From: Acinetobacter phage EAb13
Sequence record: OQ717042.1
Reading direction: 5' to 3' (one strand)
DNA: 64,000 nucleotides
The translations under genes and the position numbers were made by a program. Under the pieces are notes generated by a model. The model searched no databases. It saw only the letters and a list, made by a program, of their open reading frames with translations, and was not told the origin of the DNA. Shown piece after piece: positions 4,891 to 16,193 of this stretch. The first letter of the stretch is position 1. Every line of letters begins with the position of its first letter.

Positions 4891-4935
4891 TGTTTCAAAA
4901 TCACTTTCAAAATCAAAGTCACAGGAAATTTTATC

Positions 4936-5718
4936 ATGACTCAACAAAACGCATTAACAGACGCATTAGCTCAAGCAGCAGAAGCAGCTCAATCTGATTC
5001 AACAGCAACTGCTCAACCTATCTCTCAGGTAGAACAAGGCACAGTTGTTGGAACAAATACACCTGCAGTAGCTAACCATCAAGTTGCTACAGCACCTGCT
5101 GGCGGTCCGTCGCTATCTATGGATAGTAGCGTTGTCCAATCTCAAAGCAGCATCACAGAATTTTTAAAATTAAGTGATGGTGGCTGTATGGTTGGTGAAG
5201 TAAAGTTTGACCCGATCAAAGTTCGCATCCGTCTTGAAGATGCTCAAAACGGTGGTGGTTTTAAACCAGCATACATGATGAACTATGAAGGGCCACAAGG
5301 CATGGTTTACACTAAGTCATATGACGGTGTAACTACTACGAGTAATAACCCAGCACATGGTGGCTTATCATGGGCAGACAATAAAGCTCGTATCTTACAG
5401 ATTGCACCAAAAGCATATGATTTCTTAGGTTATGATATTGCTTTCGTTGTGGCTGAAACAGTGGTTGGTAAAGACAAGAAAACTGAACTTAAAGCAGGTA
5501 CAGTCCTTGGCTTCACTACTCCATACACTGCAGCTAAAATGCTGAAAAAAGTATGGGACTCAGGTATTGGTGCAAACCAACGTGGTAATGATGCAATTCT
5601 TATGATTTCTGGTGAAGAAATTTCTAAGAATGGCCGTCAGTACAAGCAATTGGTAGTTGAGCATGTAGGTTACGCAGCTCCAACTGACCTTGCAGAACCT
5701 GAACATGAAGGTGAGTAA
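4936..5718 (+). CDS. hypothetical protein; Ala/Gln-rich N-terminus plus globular C-terminal domain (possible DNA-binding/SSB-like, speculative)
   Basis: ATG 4936 preceded by AGGA; the track start 4876 lies inside the upstream terminator. Positioned between helicase and flap nuclease. Confidence 0.5.
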   Translation: MTQQNALTDALAQAAEAAQSDSTATAQPISQVEQGTVVGTNTPAVANHQVATAPAGGPSLSMDSSVVQSQSSITEFLKLSDGGCMVGEVKFDPIKVRIRLEDAQNGGGFKPAYMMNYEGPQGMVYTKSYDGVTTTSNNPAHGGLSWADNKARILQIAPKAYDFLGYDIAFVVAETVVGKDKKTELKAGTVLGFTTPYTAAKMLKKVWDSGIGANQRGNDAILMISGEEISKNGRQYKQLVVEHVGYAAPTDLAEPEHEGE

Positions 5719-5731
5719 TCACTTTTAATTC

Positions 5732-5762
5732 AAATGCCCCTTAATTGGGGCATTTGTCTATT
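5732..5762 (+). terminator. rho-independent terminator
   Basis: AAATGCCCC-ttaatt-GGGGCATTT followed by GTCTATTT. Confidence 0.5.
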
Positions 5763-5772
5763 TGGAGATAAC

Positions 5773-5949
5773 ATGTTAGTCCTTCCAGATTTAAAACCAG
5801 AAACCTTACTGGCTTTAGCTATTTTTGTTCTCATGTTTTGTATAGCTTGTTGGCACGAAGATTATACGGAGAAAAAGAATATAGAAAAAGCAGAAAAGTT
5901 AAGGAAAAAATTGAACAAAAACAAAGGGGTAGATGAATGCAACGAATAA
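5773..5949 (+). CDS. small membrane protein (58 aa)
   Basis: ATG preceded by GGAGATAAC; hydrophobic core LLALAIFVLMFCIACW; the track start 5734 lies within the terminator hairpin. Confidence 0.4.
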   Translation: MLVLPDLKPETLLALAIFVLMFCIACWHEDYTEKKNIEKAEKLRKKLNKNKGVDECNE

Positions 5950-6755
5950 ATATCATTGATGGAAACAACCAGTTCTTCATCAATATGAGCCGTGCGTTGA
6001 ATGCTCAAGACTTAGCTCGTCGCTGTTTTGAACTACACCGTGGCTATGACATTGTATACTGGACCTTTGACGGACTAGACTCACGAAAACCTCGTCGTGA
6101 CTTATATGCTGGATATAAAGACACAGTATCCCGTCAAAAAGCCAAGACTGATACTAACCGATACGAGCTGCTAAAGAATTTTAAGCATCGTGATTTACCT
6201 GCAGAGGGCGGTGTCATTGTCCTAGAAATACCATTTTTTGAAGCCGATGACGTGATTCGTAAATTAGTCATGCATCACGCCAATGGTGACAACCTCATCA
6301 CCATATCTTCAAATGATGCCGATTTACTGAACCTGACACAGTACAAAGGTGTGACACAGCCACAAGCTAAGCTACCTGCAGTGTGCCCACACCCGCACTT
6401 AATACCAATCTACAAAACACTGGTTGGTGATACTGGGGATAACATCAAGGGCCTAAAAGGTTTTGGTGAGAGTGCTTGGGCCAAACTGTCGGAAGGTGAC
6501 CTACGTTTAATTACGTCCTGTCTGATAAATAAGATACCTATCAATGAAGATAGCGTAATGGATGATGAAAAGCTGAAAGCTAAGTTAATAGAACATTGGG
6601 ATTCTGTTGCGTTATGGTATAAGCTAGTTGACTATATTGACATTCCAGACGATGCTATCCAAGCTAACTTGAGAATACATCCACGGAAAACTCCAAAAAA
6701 CCCTGTGGCGTTTACTGATGTAAAACGACCAAGCATTTCAATGGATAAGCTATGA
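5937..6755 (+). CDS. 5'-3' exonuclease / flap endonuclease (FEN, Pol I 5'-exo family)
   Basis: Motifs IIDGNN, FEADDV, SSNDADL and the helix-hairpin-helix GDTGDNIKGLKGFG typical of the T4 RNase H/T5 D15/Pol I 5'-nuclease family. Confidence 0.8.
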   Translation: MQRINIIDGNNQFFINMSRALNAQDLARRCFELHRGYDIVYWTFDGLDSRKPRRDLYAGYKDTVSRQKAKTDTNRYELLKNFKHRDLPAEGGVIVLEIPFFEADDVIRKLVMHHANGDNLITISSNDADLLNLTQYKGVTQPQAKLPAVCPHPHLIPIYKTLVGDTGDNIKGLKGFGESAWAKLSEGDLRLITSCLINKIPINEDSVMDDEKLKAKLIEHWDSVALWYKLVDYIDIPDDAIQANLRIHPRKTPKNPVAFTDVKRPSISMDKL

Positions 6756-7354: not shown

Positions 7355-9454
7355 ATGGCTAATGTTATTGACCTTTTTACCAGAAAGATTAAAGACCTTC
7401 TGGTGGGTTCAGACCTTGGTGCTAACCCACACGTTTTTAAAGATGTAAAGATTCCAGTAGGTAACTTACCTTCCAACTATCGTGACATTGAAGCTCTTAC
7501 ATTAGAACAAATTTCAGAGCTGGCACTTGGTATGAACCCTAACGGTGGTAACTATTCAGAGGAACCACCGATTGTTTATGAAAATCTGGTGGAACGTTTC
7601 CCTGCAGACTGCTGGACCGTAGATGGTGTACGCAGTATGTCATTCTGTGTGGTCGGTGAAAAGGATGATGGCTTCGATGTTTACTGGACTTCACGTCGTA
7701 AAAATGACTTTGCTGCAGTCATCTGGTTTAGTGAAGACTTAAACATGCACCCATACCTAGCGTATGAAACTAAGCGTGACTACCGTGGCTGTACCTTATC
7801 ATTTTCCATTGACCTAGAAGGTCAAGTACCAAGTATCTCAGACGAGAAGCTAGGCTTGGTTATGACTGTCATGACTGTAAACAGTTATGGTCAGTTCATC
7901 CCTCAATATCTACGCCTTGCCAACTTCGCAGACCCAGCTACATTGACTGACACCCATGCTGACATTACGATCAACTGGGACACGGCCAAGGCTGGGTTCT
8001 ATGCCGACACTAATTTCCCCAAAACAAACATCCAACGTATCTTTATTGGGTGCTTAACCAATGGCTTTGACATTGATAGCACTCAACCATTGCCTGCAGC
8101 AGAAACTGCAGCTATGAAAATCACAAATATGCGCTGCACTGGTGAACAGAGTAAGTTTATCCGTCGGACAATGGCTGTGCCACAGCACACGATTGGCATG
8201 TGTACCAGTTATGATGATAGCTATAACGTAAACCCTTACCGTATCATCAAGAACTGCTTCATGCTTGGCTATCGCGGCCACGTGAACCATTACTGTGGTA
8301 TGTCTCATTACTACAACCAGAAATGGGATGAGTCACAGCTTCGCTTTGTGGTAACCAAGGTTGAGGACCGACCACAATACAGTCTCATCAATAAAGAGAC
8401 TACTTTGTGGCATAAGTACATGGCTAAAGCCTGCAAGAAAATGTACATGCTGCCAATTTTTTCTGTGTCTTATGAAATGTTTTCGGAAGCTGCAGAATTA
8501 TCTTGGACTCAACGTGACTGGAACGATAACTATGGCCGTACAGGTTATGAGCCACCAAGTTATTTATTAAGCCCATGTATCCCAGAAGCCATGAACTGGT
8601 TACAGCAAGTATTTATTGAGTTTGCAGCTATTTCTGCGGGTGAAGGGTTAGTACCGCACCTGCAGGTAGGTGAACCATGGTGGTGGATTAATAGTGACGG
8701 TAAACCTTGTATTTATGATTACCCTACACGGGTTAAATTTAATGCTGAGACAGGGTTATTTGCGCCAGAAATCCCTAACCGTATGGACACACACTTACTT
8801 GAACAATCACCTTACAAAGAATTTGCTGCATTCTTGCGTAAGGAATTGGGTAATTCTGTTGTGGCCGTGCGTACAGCAGTGAAACAGGTTTATCCAGAAG
8901 CATTGGTTACAACACTATTTTTCTTACCTTCCATCTTGGATGAAGAAACCAGTGGTATTGCTTCAACGATTAACTATCCAGTAGAGCAGTACAAGTACCC
9001 TAACCTTGACTTTATCCAGACTGAAACCTATGACTGGTTGATTATTGGTAAATTTAACAAGGCTTTACGTGGTTTTACTTCTGCCATTGATGAGTTAGGA
9101 TACCCACCAGACTTGGTACACTACCTGCTTGGCTTTGTCCCAGATGATTTCTTGGGCAAGCTAATTATCCCTAACTATGATCTTAAAAAGGACGGGGTAA
9201 AGGTCTGGCAGTCTATCATGGGTAATGCTTACCTTGGTAAAGAATACAATGTGGCTAAGCAGTATATCTGGGCATACAACCAAGTTATGCGTGATGGTCT
9301 GGTTATCCAGCCAGAGCTGTTCTTGCGTAAGTTCTGGATATTGAATAGCCTGTATTTGAGTCAGGTCCGTGAAGGTGAAGTGTTGGGCACACCAATTGAT
9401 AACCTCCCTTGGAACCCTGTGCGTCCACCACAGCCAGAAACTCCAAATGTATAA
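7355..9454 (+). CDS. putative tail fibre/receptor-binding protein, paralogue 1 (699 aa)
   Basis: N-terminal ~60 aa (DLLVGSDLGANPHVFKDVKIPVGNLPSNYRDIEALTLEQISELAL) is recognisably homologous to the N-termini of ORFs 10467 and 11575; large W/Y-rich C-terminal region. Confidence 0.4.
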   Translation: MANVIDLFTRKIKDLLVGSDLGANPHVFKDVKIPVGNLPSNYRDIEALTLEQISELALGMNPNGGNYSEEPPIVYENLVERFPADCWTVDGVRSMSFCVVGEKDDGFDVYWTSRRKNDFAAVIWFSEDLNMHPYLAYETKRDYRGCTLSFSIDLEGQVPSISDEKLGLVMTVMTVNSYGQFIPQYLRLANFADPATLTDTHADITINWDTAKAGFYADTNFPKTNIQRIFIGCLTNGFDIDSTQPLPAAETAAMKITNMRCTGEQSKFIRRTMAVPQHTIGMCTSYDDSYNVNPYRIIKNCFMLGYRGHVNHYCGMSHYYNQKWDESQLRFVVTKVEDRPQYSLINKETTLWHKYMAKACKKMYMLPIFSVSYEMFSEAAELSWTQRDWNDNYGRTGYEPPSYLLSPCIPEAMNWLQQVFIEFAAISAGEGLVPHLQVGEPWWWINSDGKPCIYDYPTRVKFNAETGLFAPEIPNRMDTHLLEQSPYKEFAAFLRKELGNSVVAVRTAVKQVYPEALVTTLFFLPSILDEETSGIASTINYPVEQYKYPNLDFIQTETYDWLIIGKFNKALRGFTSAIDELGYPPDLVHYLLGFVPDDFLGKLIIPNYDLKKDGVKVWQSIMGNAYLGKEYNVAKQYIWAYNQVMRDGLVIQPELFLRKFWILNSLYLSQVREGEVLGTPIDNLPWNPVRPPQPETPNV

Positions 9455-14205: not shown

Positions 14206-14290
14206 TATTGGTTTCAAGACGAGGGGCAGCAGTTAAACAGTAGTTCTAGCTTAGCTTGAAACAACAGTTGTATGCAAAGTCCCAAGTATA

Positions 14291-14315
14291 AAAAACCCCT
14301 TTCGGGGGTTTTTTA
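14291..14315 (+). terminator. rho-independent terminator
   Basis: AAAAACCCC-tttcg-GGGGTTTTTT. Confidence 0.8.
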
Positions 14316-14493
14316 ATCGCTTTAGAAAGCAGTAAATTTTAAAGCTAAATCAATTTATTTTGGATTAGTCTTTTTGATTTCAATATTTAGATACTATTGT
14401 TGCTTTCTAAACGATTAACCAATGTGGCTACGAACTTAGCCAATGAAGTTGAAAGACGGATTGAACAACCCCTTAGTGTTGATGTTCATTTTC

Positions 14494-14569
14494 TGCTATG
14501 TAGCTCAGTAGGTAGAGCAGCGGATTGTTAATCCGTAGGTCATTGGTTCGAGTCCAGTCTTAGCAGCCA
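14494..14569 (+). tRNA. tRNA-Asn (anticodon GTT), CCA encoded
   Basis: Hand-folded cloverleaf: acceptor TGCTATG/CTTAGCA (one mismatch), D-arm GCTC-AGTAGGTA-GAGC, anticodon arm GCGGA-TTGTTAA-TCCGT, variable loop AGGTC, T-arm ATTGG-TTCGAGT-CCAGT, discriminator G, CCA. Confidence 0.85.
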
Positions 14570-14734
14570 TTATGTCTGACATTGTTGGCTTAGCACACTT
14601 GGTTCTGCAGATAACCGCTTAGTGCAAGTAGAGTGGTTCTAACAACAGAATTGTTTTAGAAGTTGATAGTAGCTATAGTAATGCTTGATACAGATAAAAA
14701 CAGTTGGGGTTCGACTCCCTGTGTCAGACCCAAT

Positions 14735-14810
14735 ATTTACGGTTGATAACTTTGGACGATTTTACAACAAAGGTCGCAACTTTGAAGGACACAAGTTATC
14801 AACCGTAAAT
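14735..14810. repeat. 16-bp perfect inverted repeat ATTTACGGTTGATAAC / GTTATCAACCGTAAAT with 44-nt spacer
   Basis: Exact reverse complements at 14735-14750 and 14795-14810; the left arm directly follows a CCCAATATTTA motif that recurs at 14957-14967. Confidence 0.6.
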
Positions 14811-15902
14811 GTTGGAAACAATGTTTATTGGGTTAGCTATCAAACTGATGTGAACGAAAGCGCGTAAGTAGTTTACTGAAAGTTACTGGTGTAGGTAGAT
14901 GTGCTGTGTTACTTCTAGGGTCAAAGGCACATTTTGGTTCGATTCCATAATAACCCACCCAATATTTAGTGAAGCATTCTTGACGAACCGCATGATATGT
15001 AAGGGGTAATGGAGACTGTGATAAGTCTGTGAAGTTACCAGATAAGTTGAAGCGAATGTGGCCCTTTTCAAAGGTTGTGGGCCAAAGCTAAGCTGTCGAT
15101 CAACAGATTTAGCATCAACCAAGGTGTTGCTAGTCACTTCACTGAGAATGCTTCCCTAAATGTTGGATTACTCAGGCAAAGGGTAAACCTCTGTAGACAG
15201 GCCGCAAGGTACAGATAACCTTGGTCGGGGCCGATAAGTTTTTGGGTTATGCAGCTCAAATCCAACATTTCCAAATTTGAGGACTGCCGATTTAACGGTT
15301 GTGCAAGCTCAAAGGGTTATGGAATTACCGCACGACTCTCTTGCAGAGAAGGTATGAACATAAGGGTGTCACCTACCAGCAGGTCAACTAAGTACACGTT
15401 GATTAATCCTAGTGGTGAGATTTCAGGGAACCTAGCTAAGGTTCCTAACAATATTTATGGAAACAAACTCATGACTGTGACCTCTTTGAAAAGATAAACA
15501 GTTGGTTGTTGGTTAGTTTGGGTATGTGAGGTAACCATTCAAGCGGACAACCCCTCCCTCACGATGGTTGAGTTTGGTTCCATAAGTGTTGTAAATGAGA
15601 GAAACAGCCCGTATCCCTGTATGGTTAAGACTGCTTTCAATAGTCTGTGGATTGAAACCTAGCTGGTAACAGCATGAGTCGGATGCCACGCCTTGTATGG
15701 CAACAAACCAGCGAGTGAGTGGAAAGCTCACAACCAACACTTACCATGTTTACTGTCAGACTCAGGACATAAGCGAGGAACATAGCAGAGAAATTGCTCT
15801 AAGAAGTATAAGCCTGCTTGACCGACAAGAATGTTGAGTCAGCACCCCGACCATTAAATTGGTTGGGGTGTTATTTTATCCACGCAATAAAAGGAAATAA
15901 CT

Positions 15903-16193
15903 ATGACCGACGACAATAAAATGTTTGATGGAATGTTCCCAGCCCCTGCAGCAATTTGGGAATCTCAAGGTATCACTGATTCAGAAGTGTACCAGCAAGC
16001 TGCTATGATTTATGCTAAGTTAGTTTCTGTGCCACGCACTTTGCAACATGAACAGCTACTGGAATTAGCATTCCAAGAACAAGGTTATTCTGGTGCAACC
16101 GAAGCATATATTCATGGAGCAGCACAAGCAGCTCTTAAATTGAAAGAATTGGTTGAAAAAGGTCTAGATAAAAATGACGGAAGTAAACCATAA
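15903..16193 (+). CDS. hypothetical protein (96 aa)
   Basis: ATG with AAAGGAAATAACT RBS; first gene after the RNA region. Confidence 0.6.
   Translation: MTDDNKMFDGMFPAPAAIWESQGITDSEVYQQAAMIYAKLVSVPRTLQHEQLLELAFQEQGYSGATEAYIHGAAQAALKLKELVEKGLDKNDGSKP

Follow-up and report, generated by a model that had tools for sequence, protein, structure and literature searches.

In a 64-kb window of Acinetobacter phage EAb13 (the whole stretch of DNA analysed; coordinates refer to the + strand unless stated), positions ~14490-15880 appear to form a single + strand non-coding transcription unit that runs from a tRNA-Asn gene to an intrinsic terminator. This unit would encode two oversized tRNA-shaped RNAs, here called units A and B, and a multi-domain structured RNA of ~0.9 kb, one domain of which is a member of a phage RNA family, and the transcript would be processed into stable RNAs. 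Judging from sequence comparison, we put the probability of this reading at about 0.7. Selection on RNA structures in the region, the existence of the family and its tie to tRNA genes are demonstrated by the data below. The window was compared with four Acinetobacter baumannii siphophages, fJoAci01 (L001), TCUP2199 (L002), fJoAci04 (L003) and Mystique (L004), which are ~90% identical to this segment. None of the four has a credible coding sequence (CDS) between a small gene after the endolysin gene and a small gene upstream of the DNA polymerase gene; the records of three relatives annotate no CDS in that stretch, and the Mystique pipeline placed five tiny ones there.

The RNA family is recognized by a near-invariant 23-nt loop. 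A 24-mer from 15608-31 recurs, letter for letter, in unrelated viral contigs (158-193 kb) that have nothing further in common with the window. Searches of IMG/VR and metagenomes with overlapping 17-mers and a degenerate 23-mer yielded ~25 distinct members, and BLAST found the loop in 218 GenBank phage records, mostly of 150-160 kb (Ackermannviridae-sized) plus Schitoviridae, with hosts that are mostly Salmonella, Klebsiella, Escherichia, Dickeya, Shigella, Serratia and Vibrio. Det7 and 0507-KN2-1 are classified as Ackermannviridae. The RNA is annotated as such in none of the >200 GenBank records, no Rfam 15 model matches it in the window or the member loci, the loop sequence was not found in the literature searched, and the publications on Mystique, TCUP2199 and the Ackermannviridae do not mention the region. 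Because a scan of 185,579 bacterial and archaeal species, one genome each, gave no exact copy of the loop word, the family looks phage-restricted, and a cellular origin was rejected on the same search.

From 5' to 3', the family consensus comprises (A)AUGAG, helix P1 (8-9 bp), the 23-nt loop CCCGWAUCCCUGUAUGGUYAAGA, AAUAG, helix P2, GGUGG, a GNRA hairpin (mostly GUAA), variable inserts of 20-110 nt and a 3' hairpin with the loop UGGAAAG. In P2, G-(bulged U)-NNNN pairs with an NNNN-C placed after CAAAC. The whole RNA measures 134-227 nt in most phages. R1, a covariance model of the 5' half, detects one copy in every member locus and a single copy in the window (15594-15650, 63 bits, E 4.5e-17), where a scan for a second copy found none. 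The window member has the loop with its closing helix, AAUAG and G(U)NNNN, together with the P2 3' strand, the GNRA hairpin and the UGGAAAG hairpin; a lineage-specific helix (15584-91/15735-42) possibly closes it.

Covariation within the family is strong. P1 and the 3' hairpin were evaluated on mini-constructs, in which each of 20 members was reduced to its joined 5' and 3' blocks: 87.9% of cells were paired as against 36-46% when the strands were slid, 13 of 15 pairs showed compensatory changes, and none of 500 shuffles equalled this result. For P2, 94 of 95 cells were paired through seven distinct strand combinations (0/5000 shuffles equal). The GNRA hairpin is present in all 20 members, with a stem of at least 4 bp in 14 of them compared with 6% of shuffled controls, and the U.G pair closing the 3' hairpin in 15/20 members provides evidence for the strand. 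Among the five Acinetobacter phages the module (15583-15754 in the window) is 97-99% identical, versus 72-97% for the flanking genes. This is a well-supported, uncurated and apparently phage-only RNA family.

Divergent loops were obtained by BLAST from Klebsiella Taipeivirus, Gamaleyavirus (Schitoviridae) and a Vibrio phage; these variants retain 20-21 of 23 loop positions and score 33-45 bits with R1. Two double changes were seen, C3->U with G12->A in Gamaleyavirus (L054/L055) and U11->G with A14->C in Taipeivirus (L052), each in a single lineage. Such paired changes may mark base pairs inside the "loop"; a search for tertiary pairs within it gave these single-lineage hints only, too few to call. 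Four members of Ackermannviridae type (L008, L009, L011 and L041) are rearranged, with GUGGAAAGCC directly after P1 and a closing helix CCAACC/GGUUGG that spans ~270 nt, while CAAACCCAGC and a hairpin with the loop UGAAAAG stand at the 3' end of a separate tRNA-like unit ending ACCCCGCCA. In both L011 and L041 the two parts of the rearranged RNA are separated by an inserted normal tRNA.

The family keeps close company with tRNA genes. Of 21 distinct loci, 13 have a tRNA no more than 1.5 kb away; these tRNAs number 37, and every one shares the strand of the family RNA. Several members adjoin a tRNA at 5-8 nt. In Det7 the family RNA sits just upstream of tRNA-Met, Asn, Tyr and Ser and a "pseudo-tRNA". 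In L017 it is itself framed by an acceptor helix and a T arm (CUGUGGCAG ... GUCGG-UUCUAUU-CCGAC-CUGCCACAG). The family is embedded in tRNA clusters of at least three lineages, Ackermannviridae, Schitoviridae and the Acinetobacter siphophages, and is found in many uncultivated phages as well; the customary view of phage tRNA clusters is that they are no more than sets of tRNAs for codon supply or anti-defence. A conserved protein partner was considered and rejected, no open reading frame (ORF) cluster being common to three or more of the 21 loci within +-5 kb. Two further features were noticed near family members. Just 5' of the family RNA in L008, a Salmonella Ackermannviridae-type contig, a sub-threshold match to Rfam STnc100 was found on the minus strand (8496-8605, 33.7 bits, E 6e-5, model positions 30-148), with weak matches of transfer-messenger RNA (tmRNA) type further upstream; in Det7, the record leaves ~1.4 kb upstream of the family RNA without annotation (L043 785-2220). 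It may be that the Ackermannviridae, too, have a larger RNA region.

Units A and B lie between tRNA-Asn and the family member. The original prediction, made from the window alone, had described the sequence after tRNA-Asn as a coding-poor segment with tRNA-like 3' modules lacking recognizable 5' halves, and every sequence feature it listed is present where it was placed. The word GGTTCGANTCC occurs exactly three times in the 64-kb window, always on the + strand and within 14545-14946, with one copy in the true tRNA-Asn; by our own calculation the chance expectation for exact matches is ~0.1. The 5' partner suggested for the first module, TCTGACA at 14575-81, does lie 5 nt past the tRNA-Asn CCA, and closure of a 158-nt molecule by TCTGACA/TGTCAGA is confirmed by covariation. 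When RNAalifold was given the four distinct versions of unit A, the same sequences from which the structure is derived, a four-way junction of 41 pairs was predicted unaided, nine of them compensatory. Paired cells amounted to 96.3%, compared with 34-48% when partners were slid, and nine pairs were changed on both sides, compared with 0-2 in the slid controls; in the acceptor helix this held for four of six pairs. The loops, such as CUGCAGA(U) and UUGAUAGNAGCUAUAGUAAU, do not differ among the four sequences. Unit A evolves faster than any other segment of the locus and has the lowest identity (~79%), and since pairing persists at this level it is the fold rather than the sequence that is kept. 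R2, a covariance model built on unit A, gives 164-170 bits in each of the five phages and aligns ordinary tRNAs end to end at 20-24 bits. The invariant loop CUGCAGAU at 14605-14612 holds the palindrome CUGCAG, which, going by its sequence, could mediate kissing dimerization of unit A, or let unit A pair with the identical motif in an extra unit of fJoAci04. As a 7-nt loop, CUGCAGA resembles an anticodon loop (U33, GCA, purine 37); the stem register does not fit a tRNA.

The second module is part of unit B. The view that it has no 5' half did not hold, as UGGGUUA at 14829-35 is the missing partner and unit B is therefore a closed 133-nt unit and not a 3' half. Its T arm had been identified correctly; the register given for its 3' end was one base off, for CCCA rather than CCA follows ATAACCC-A. 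Also overlooked was the separate large structured RNA that fills most of the 1.3 kb. The minimum free energy fold of unit B closes its ends, AAGUAG is common to both units, and the unit B copies of fJoAci01 and TCUP2199 are matched by R2 weakly but over their full length, at 12-14 bits. Among the five phages compared, unit B was found only in the window, fJoAci01 and TCUP2199. An extra unit of ~194 nt, unit 0 (1877-2070), present in fJoAci04 only, separates tRNA-Asn from unit A there; its T arm is good (GGUGG-UUCGAGU-CCAUC), and it holds another CUGCAGAU motif and gives a weak full-length match to R2. TCUP2199 has lost tRNA-Asn (alignment A1, columns 1-110) and retains everything downstream, units A and B and the large RNA included.

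Known RNA classes do not account for these units. Both possess a 7-bp acceptor helix, an arm with a UUCRANY T loop and a discriminator followed by CCA; under the Rfam tRNA model, whose cloverleaf has a 4-bp D arm and a 5-bp anticodon stem with a 7-nt loop, only 14494-14566 passes the 29-bit gathering threshold (69 bits). Neither unit is found by that model even at E<=10, in agreement with the prediction that they are not standard cloverleaves, and a published tRNAscan-SE run reported no tRNA in TCUP2199, which carries both (PMC9228384). ARAGORN and Rfam 15 recovered tRNA-Asn as anticipated, while a structured RNA of a known family was not obtained for unit A, unit B or the downstream sequence: at gathering thresholds and at E<=10, Rfam yielded only tRNA-Asn beyond noise in the window and only tRNAs and noise across the window and about 25 related loci. 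YrlA (gathering threshold 69 bits) gave only a 17.6-bit match overlapping tRNA-Asn. ARAGORN called a "tRNA-Pyl(cta)" at 14880-14959; we treat this as a forced fit, because it has no Rfam tRNA match at E<=10 and is not called in relatives of nearly the same sequence. The specific identities first proposed for the 158-nt molecule also failed. It is not a tRNA with one ~85-nt insertion, since the D-arm and anticodon-arm positions both hold larger structured arms at a four-way junction. Nor is it a permuted or split tRNA, both units having the 5' acceptor strand upstream of the 3' strand in the normal order, and ARAGORN found no tmRNA, intron-containing tRNA or permuted tRNA in the window or the relatives. 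A tmRNA-like molecule is contradicted by the missing Rfam tmRNA match, and the lack of a tag frame and of G3.U70, pair 3-70 of unit A being U-A in the window, fJoAci01 and fJoAci04 and G-C in Mystique. The positions of all features in the window are collected in Table 1.

Table 1. Features of the EAb13 window from the endolysin-operon terminator to the end of the non-coding unit; folds are predictions.
Feature	Position	Strand	Description	Basis
Terminator-type hairpin	14289..14315	+	TAAAAAACCCC/GGGGTTTTTTA, 11/11 bp; closes upstream endolysin operon	Inverted repeat I11
tRNA-Asn(GUU)	14494..14569	+	Genuine tRNA	ARAGORN; Rfam tRNA 69 bits (match 14494-14566)
Unit A	14575..14732	+	158-nt tRNA-shaped RNA	Sequence; RNAalifold; model R2
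Unit A acceptor helix	14575-81/14722-28	+	TCTGACA/TGTCAGA	Covariation
Unit A arm I	14582-87/14643-48 (closing)	+	Inner hairpin GGUU(14601-04)-CUGCAGAU-AACC(14613-16)	RNAalifold
Unit A arm II	~14649-14705	+	Long hairpin, invariant tip	RNAalifold
Unit A T arm	14705-09/14717-21	+	Canonical, TGGGG-TTCGACT-CCCTG	Sequence
Unit A 3' end	14729; 14730-32	+	Discriminator C; CCA	Sequence
Hairpin H	14730..14815	+	86 nt, 23-bp arms CCAAUAUUUACGG.../...CCGUAAAUGUUGG, 96% complementary	Inverted repeat I1
Unit B	14829..14961	+	133-nt tRNA-shaped RNA	Sequence; inverted repeat I9
Unit B acceptor helix	14829-35/14951-57	+	UGGGUUA/UAACCCA	Sequence
Unit B T arm	14933-37/14945-49	+	Weak, TTTGG-TTCGATT-CCATA, loop UUCGAUU	Sequence
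Unit B 3' end	14958; 14959-61	+	Discriminator C; CCA	Corrected register, preferred
Domain D1	14959..15166	+	22-bp closing helix CCAAUAUUUAGUGAAGCAUUCU / AGAAUGCUUCCCUAAAUGUUGG	Inverted repeat I3; RNAalifold (57 pairs, 7 compensatory, 5 phages)
Domain D2	15167..15447	+	Conserved blocks round hypervariable island ~15318-15364	Alignment A1; RNAalifold
Domain D3	15448..15592	+	24-bp closing helix ACAAUAUUUAUGGAAAC... / ...GUUCCAUAAGUGUUGU	Inverted repeat I2
Phage RNA family member	15593..15731	+		Model R1; family covariation
Family member, 5' part		+	AAUGAG; P1 15601-07/15631-38; near-invariant 23-nt loop 15608-30; AAUAG 15639-43	
Family member, P2		+	G15643 and C15645-G15647 with C15709-C15712; U15644 bulged; CAAAC 15704-08	
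Family member, hairpins		+	GUAA hairpin 15662-73; hairpin 15685-15701; 3' hairpin 15715-31 with loop UGGAAAG	
3' domain	15732..15840	+	Nearly invariant in five phages; predicted hairpins	Alignment; RNAalifold
Intrinsic terminator	15841..15872	+	13-bp stem and U run; 3' end of RNA unit	Terminator scan

The stretch downstream of unit B is the best-conserved DNA of the locus. RNAalifold over 14958-15880 in the five close phages predicted 271 pairs, 22 of them compensatory. Three helices of 22-24 bp, sharing the arm words CAAUAUUUA and UAAAUGUUGG, close hairpin H, D1 and D3, and the 5' arms of the first two start at the CCA of units A and B, so that the first 3 nt of hairpin H and of D1 are those CCA ends. 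These long helices work on the + strand only, because their G.U pairs would be A.C mismatches on the other strand. Compensatory pairs occur in D2 (15210/15218 and 15384-87/15399-402), where Mystique has no counterpart of ~15174-15231 (a gap in A1), and in D3 of Mystique (15459/15581, 15460/15580 and 15462/15578). Three invariant words from D2 and the 3' domain returned only coding chance matches or nothing from IMG/VR, and the 10-11-nt long-range repeats (I5, D14) between tRNA-Asn/unit A and the 3' domain are at chance level. Hairpin H, whose helix would be of RNase III size, follows unit A in the window and fJoAci04, follows unit B in fJoAci01 and TCUP2199, and is absent from Mystique (A1 columns 712-800). 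As it moves between slots always flanked by the repeat word (C)CAATATTTA, module shuffling by recombination at the repeat is suggested; the same repeat also forms the base of the three RNA helices. Five of the six CCAAYATTT sites in the window fall within 14730-15270.

The limits of the transcription unit are marked by hairpins. The terminator-type hairpin at 14289-14315 is its 5' boundary, and the intergenic sequence 14206-14493 is 93-99.7% identical to the relatives. Within the highly conserved stretch from this hairpin to tRNA-Asn, a perfect 11-bp inverted repeat (TTTAGAAAGCA/TGCTTTCTAAA, 14321-14331/14401-14411) was observed, which could be a promoter-region operator or a leader structure. 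The stem of the 3' terminator shows a compensatory G/A-A/U change among the relatives. The next gene, with a ribosome-binding site and an ATG at 15903, begins after the terminator, and the DNA polymerase gene lies 1.2 kb downstream of the region. A more distant IMG/VR contig, L005 (DNA polymerase 71% identical), carries at 4912-6000 tRNA-Asn and tRNA-Thr followed by a 140-aa ORF in the place taken by the RNA block in the window, and R1 found no family RNA there. The RNA block is therefore an accessory insertion at a tRNA locus.

Protein coding does not explain the region. Every frame is closed, even if any single stop codon (TAG, TGA or TAA) is read through, and the longest frame with read-through of one stop type is <= ~200 codons. 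Stops or frameshifts interrupt three of the four listed ORFs in relatives; the remaining one, a minus-strand frame, stays open solely because the underlying DNA hardly varies. Variable sites fall equally on all codon positions, without codon-position bias, and a PHROG search of the region's ORFs gave no matches. The segment is thus coding-poor as originally described, and the preference then expressed for RNA function over coding is upheld by the ORF disruption together with the covariation: comparison with related phages, proposed at that point as a check, revealed compensatory changes in unit A and no conserved protein frame. Coding through stop-codon recoding, an idea raised by the ARAGORN tRNA-Pyl(CUA) call, was ruled out by the closed frames, the unconserved ORFs and the PHROG result. 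Small "hypothetical protein" CDSs over or beside the family RNA or tRNA-shaped units are annotated in Det7 (gp199, L043 2440-2634), Mystique (Mystique_059-063, L004 1969-2870), Vibrio phage K469 (minus strand 426-545, L053) and Escherichia phage HK2 (429-611, L055). These are probably mis-annotations or over-calls.

How such a transcript might be used can be proposed from its layout. The acceptor/T-arm/CCA frames could offer the host's tRNA-maturation enzymes a handle: RNase P would release the 5' end of each acceptor helix, trimming from the 3' side would halt at the encoded CCA, and the RNase III-size helices (22-24 bp) starting at the CCA ends of units A and B would let the domains be cut apart. 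RNase P-dependent maturation is established for the stable RNAs of phage T4, and the precursor would here be diced into several stable RNAs, as is known for the T4 species 1 and 2 RNAs. During infection the mature RNAs might then act in trans on some component of the host's tRNA or translation metabolism that is highly conserved, and our preferred guess is a decoy or protective role for phage translation supply. A near-invariant loop across phages of distant hosts suggests either a very conserved partner or an intrinsic fold or catalysis. The idea that the loop is an antisense seed was rejected, as its pairing with E. coli 16S, 23S, 5S, tRNA-Glu and rnpB (-20 to -24 kcal/mol) compares with a shuffled-loop mean of -23.2.

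Several observations weigh against the proposed processed, tRNA-linked transcript. A sigma-70 promoter scan upstream of tRNA-Asn (14316-14493) gave no convincing match. The invariance of the family loop is partly built in, because most members were collected by exact loop words, and the covariation counts within the window's own lineage come from few and close sequences (four for unit A, four to five overall) that also supplied the structures. The T stem is weak in unit B and in the unit A of fJoAci04, and units are gained and lost between close relatives, as would fit decaying tRNA relics. On that explanation, units A and B and unit 0 of fJoAci04 are remnants of a tRNA array, retaining T-loop and acceptor fragments by descent and having no function. 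The occurrence of units B and 0 in only some of the five relatives, the loss of tRNA-Asn from TCUP2199, the imperfect T stems, the rapid evolution of unit A and the "pseudo tRNA" annotated in the Det7 cluster all speak for it. However, the changes in unit A are concentrated in helices and are compensatory, and its loops do not vary, which argues for purifying selection on the fold rather than decay. The non-tRNA arms are also larger than, and unrelated to, D and anticodon arms, and T4 species 1 shows that molecules of this sort are made and are stable (PMC9697503). We consider decay unlikely. A function at the DNA level, as a replication origin, recombination hot spot or packaging signal built from inverted repeats upstream of replication genes, would suit the three 22-24-bp inverted repeats with their common words CAATATTTA and TAAATGTTGG, the clustering of CCAAYATTT, the recombination-like movement of the repeat-flanked hairpin H and the nearby DNA polymerase gene. 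But the helices need G.U pairs and so exist on the + strand only, the unit starts with a tRNA and ends with a terminator on that same strand, and the module recurs in unrelated phages with tRNAs that are always co-oriented and with covariation of RNA type that includes G.U. The repeats may well promote module shuffling, which leaves the conservation unexplained, and we judge a DNA element to be highly improbable.

Two further explanations concern what kind of RNA this is. The module could be a minimal RNase P-like or tRNA-end-binding RNA in which UGAG-hairpin-AAUAG-G(U)CCGG...CUCA-AAC-CCGGC mimics P2-P3-J3/4-P4 and GGUGG docks the CCA end. Its P2 does show the P4 signature of a G-C pair, a bulged U and four covarying pairs, the words AGUCCGG and AACCCGGC are identical to the E. 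coli rnpB CR-I and CR-V words, and the RNA is located among pre-tRNAs. Set against this, no member matches an Rfam RNase P model at E<=10, the UGAG/CUCA pairing is absent from short-type members including that of the window, equivalents of P1, P5, P15 and P18 are lacking, and the near-invariant loop sits at the position of RNase P's variable P3. A chance resemblance is plausible because P2 is short and, in its commonest variant, palindromic (CCGG), and we hold this interpretation to be very unlikely. Still less credit goes to the proposal that the 0.9-kb RNA is a divergent ornate RNA of GOLLD/ROOL type forming RNA-only multimers. GOLLD and ROOL are large phage and prophage RNAs, often near tRNAs and possibly co-transcribed with them (PMC5737381), and they form homo-oligomers (PMC12286853); the window RNA is likewise large, multi-domain and beside tRNAs, and the palindromic loop CUGCAG of unit A could kiss. 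However, the GOLLD and ROOL models of Rfam gave no match at gathering thresholds or E<=10 in the window and more than 20 member loci, the family is small in most phages, and the non-module domains were not found outside the window lineage. A broader proposal for the module itself, which we rate as a long shot, is that the 23-nt-loop RNA is a phage-only functional RNA acting on tRNA biology, a small ribozyme or a tRNA/CCA-end docking device with a P4-like core that is carried in tRNA arrays to process, protect or regulate the phage's own tRNAs, the T4 "species" RNAs and the oversized units being parts of the same toolkit. If so, phages of several families would share one tRNA-acting RNA toolkit within their tRNA arrays.

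Comparison with characterized systems places the transcript among several partial analogues. With GOLLD and ROOL it has in common that structured RNAs of unknown function often lie near tRNAs in phages and prophages; those RNAs also occur in bacterial chromosomes, whereas the family described here looks restricted to phages. It is also smaller, at 134-227 nt, and without an Rfam match. Unit A resembles tmRNA in having ends paired as an acceptor helix beside a T arm, a CCA and a large insert between. It differs in the lack of an ARAGORN or Rfam match, of G3.U70 and of a resume codon or tag frame, and in that the helix after the acceptor closes a local arm rather than spanning the molecule. The likeness to the P4 core of RNase P RNA extends to a CCGG/CCGG helix, an A-rich joiner that follows a hairpin and precedes this helix, CAAAC before its 3' side and, in the 5' and 3' words shared with rnpB, identities of 7-8 nt; the family helix with its bulged U covaries, but the other defining helices are absent, there is no covariance-model match and the UGAG/CUCA pairing that would stand for RNase P's P2 is not general. 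tRNA-like elements are well known as processing handles: in the tRNA-miRNA units of MHV68, the mascRNA of MALAT1 and engineered scaffolds, an acceptor/T-arm module lets tRNA enzymes excise and stabilize an attached RNA. The frames of units A and B and of L017 might have the same role; unlike them, those systems are eukaryotic or synthetic, and no homology links the two groups.

The closest parallel is found in T4 (X03016, L044), where tRNA-Arg is followed by species 2 RNA (rnaD, 120 nt) and species 1 RNA (rnaC, 137 nt), which like our units come directly after a tRNA in the cluster. The canonical T arm of species 1 (CCGGG-UUCGAAU-CCCGG) leads into a 7-nt strand that pairs with the 5' end, and its D and anticodon positions are occupied by a long arm and a hairpin; unit A is laid out in the same way. 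The 3' end of species 2 is CACCA. Units A and B agree with species 1 in standing directly downstream of a tRNA, in size (120-160 nt) and in joining a T arm to a strand that pairs with the 5' end. There are also differences: R2 matches T4 tRNAs but neither species 1 (L044 3002-3138, E<=10) nor species 2, the family loop is not detected in T4 by R1, the annotated end of species 1 in X03016 is not followed by a CCA whereas units A and B encode theirs, and no 0.9-kb RNA lies downstream. As species 1 and unit A show no sequence homology, the resemblance is one of kind and not of family membership. R2 also matches 123-190-nt non-tRNA units with an acceptor helix, T arm and ACCA in Ackermannviridae tRNA clusters, such as L041 6828-6952 (GCCGUU.../...AACGGC-A-CCA) and L008 7822-8010 (GUUCCC.../...GGGAAC-A-CCA). 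T4 species 2 (L044 2876-2995), just past the tRNA-Arg CCA, begins with (A)AUGAG (annotated start AUGAG), the word preceding P1 in most family members, and holds GGUCGCUACCGGUAAG, similar to the family's GGUGGCUACC...GGUAAC; the 23-nt loop is missing, however, and R1 gives no match. It may be a distant, reduced relative of the family, or the likeness may be a coincidence. The function of T4 species 1 and 2 RNAs is still unknown (PMC3014915, PMC9697503). By analogy, units A and B would add new members to the oversized tRNA-shaped phage RNAs typified by T4 species 1. Together with the family, they revive the 50-year-old question of what these T4 RNAs are for, and supply tractable model phages (Det7-type, CBA120-type and Mystique) in which to pursue it.

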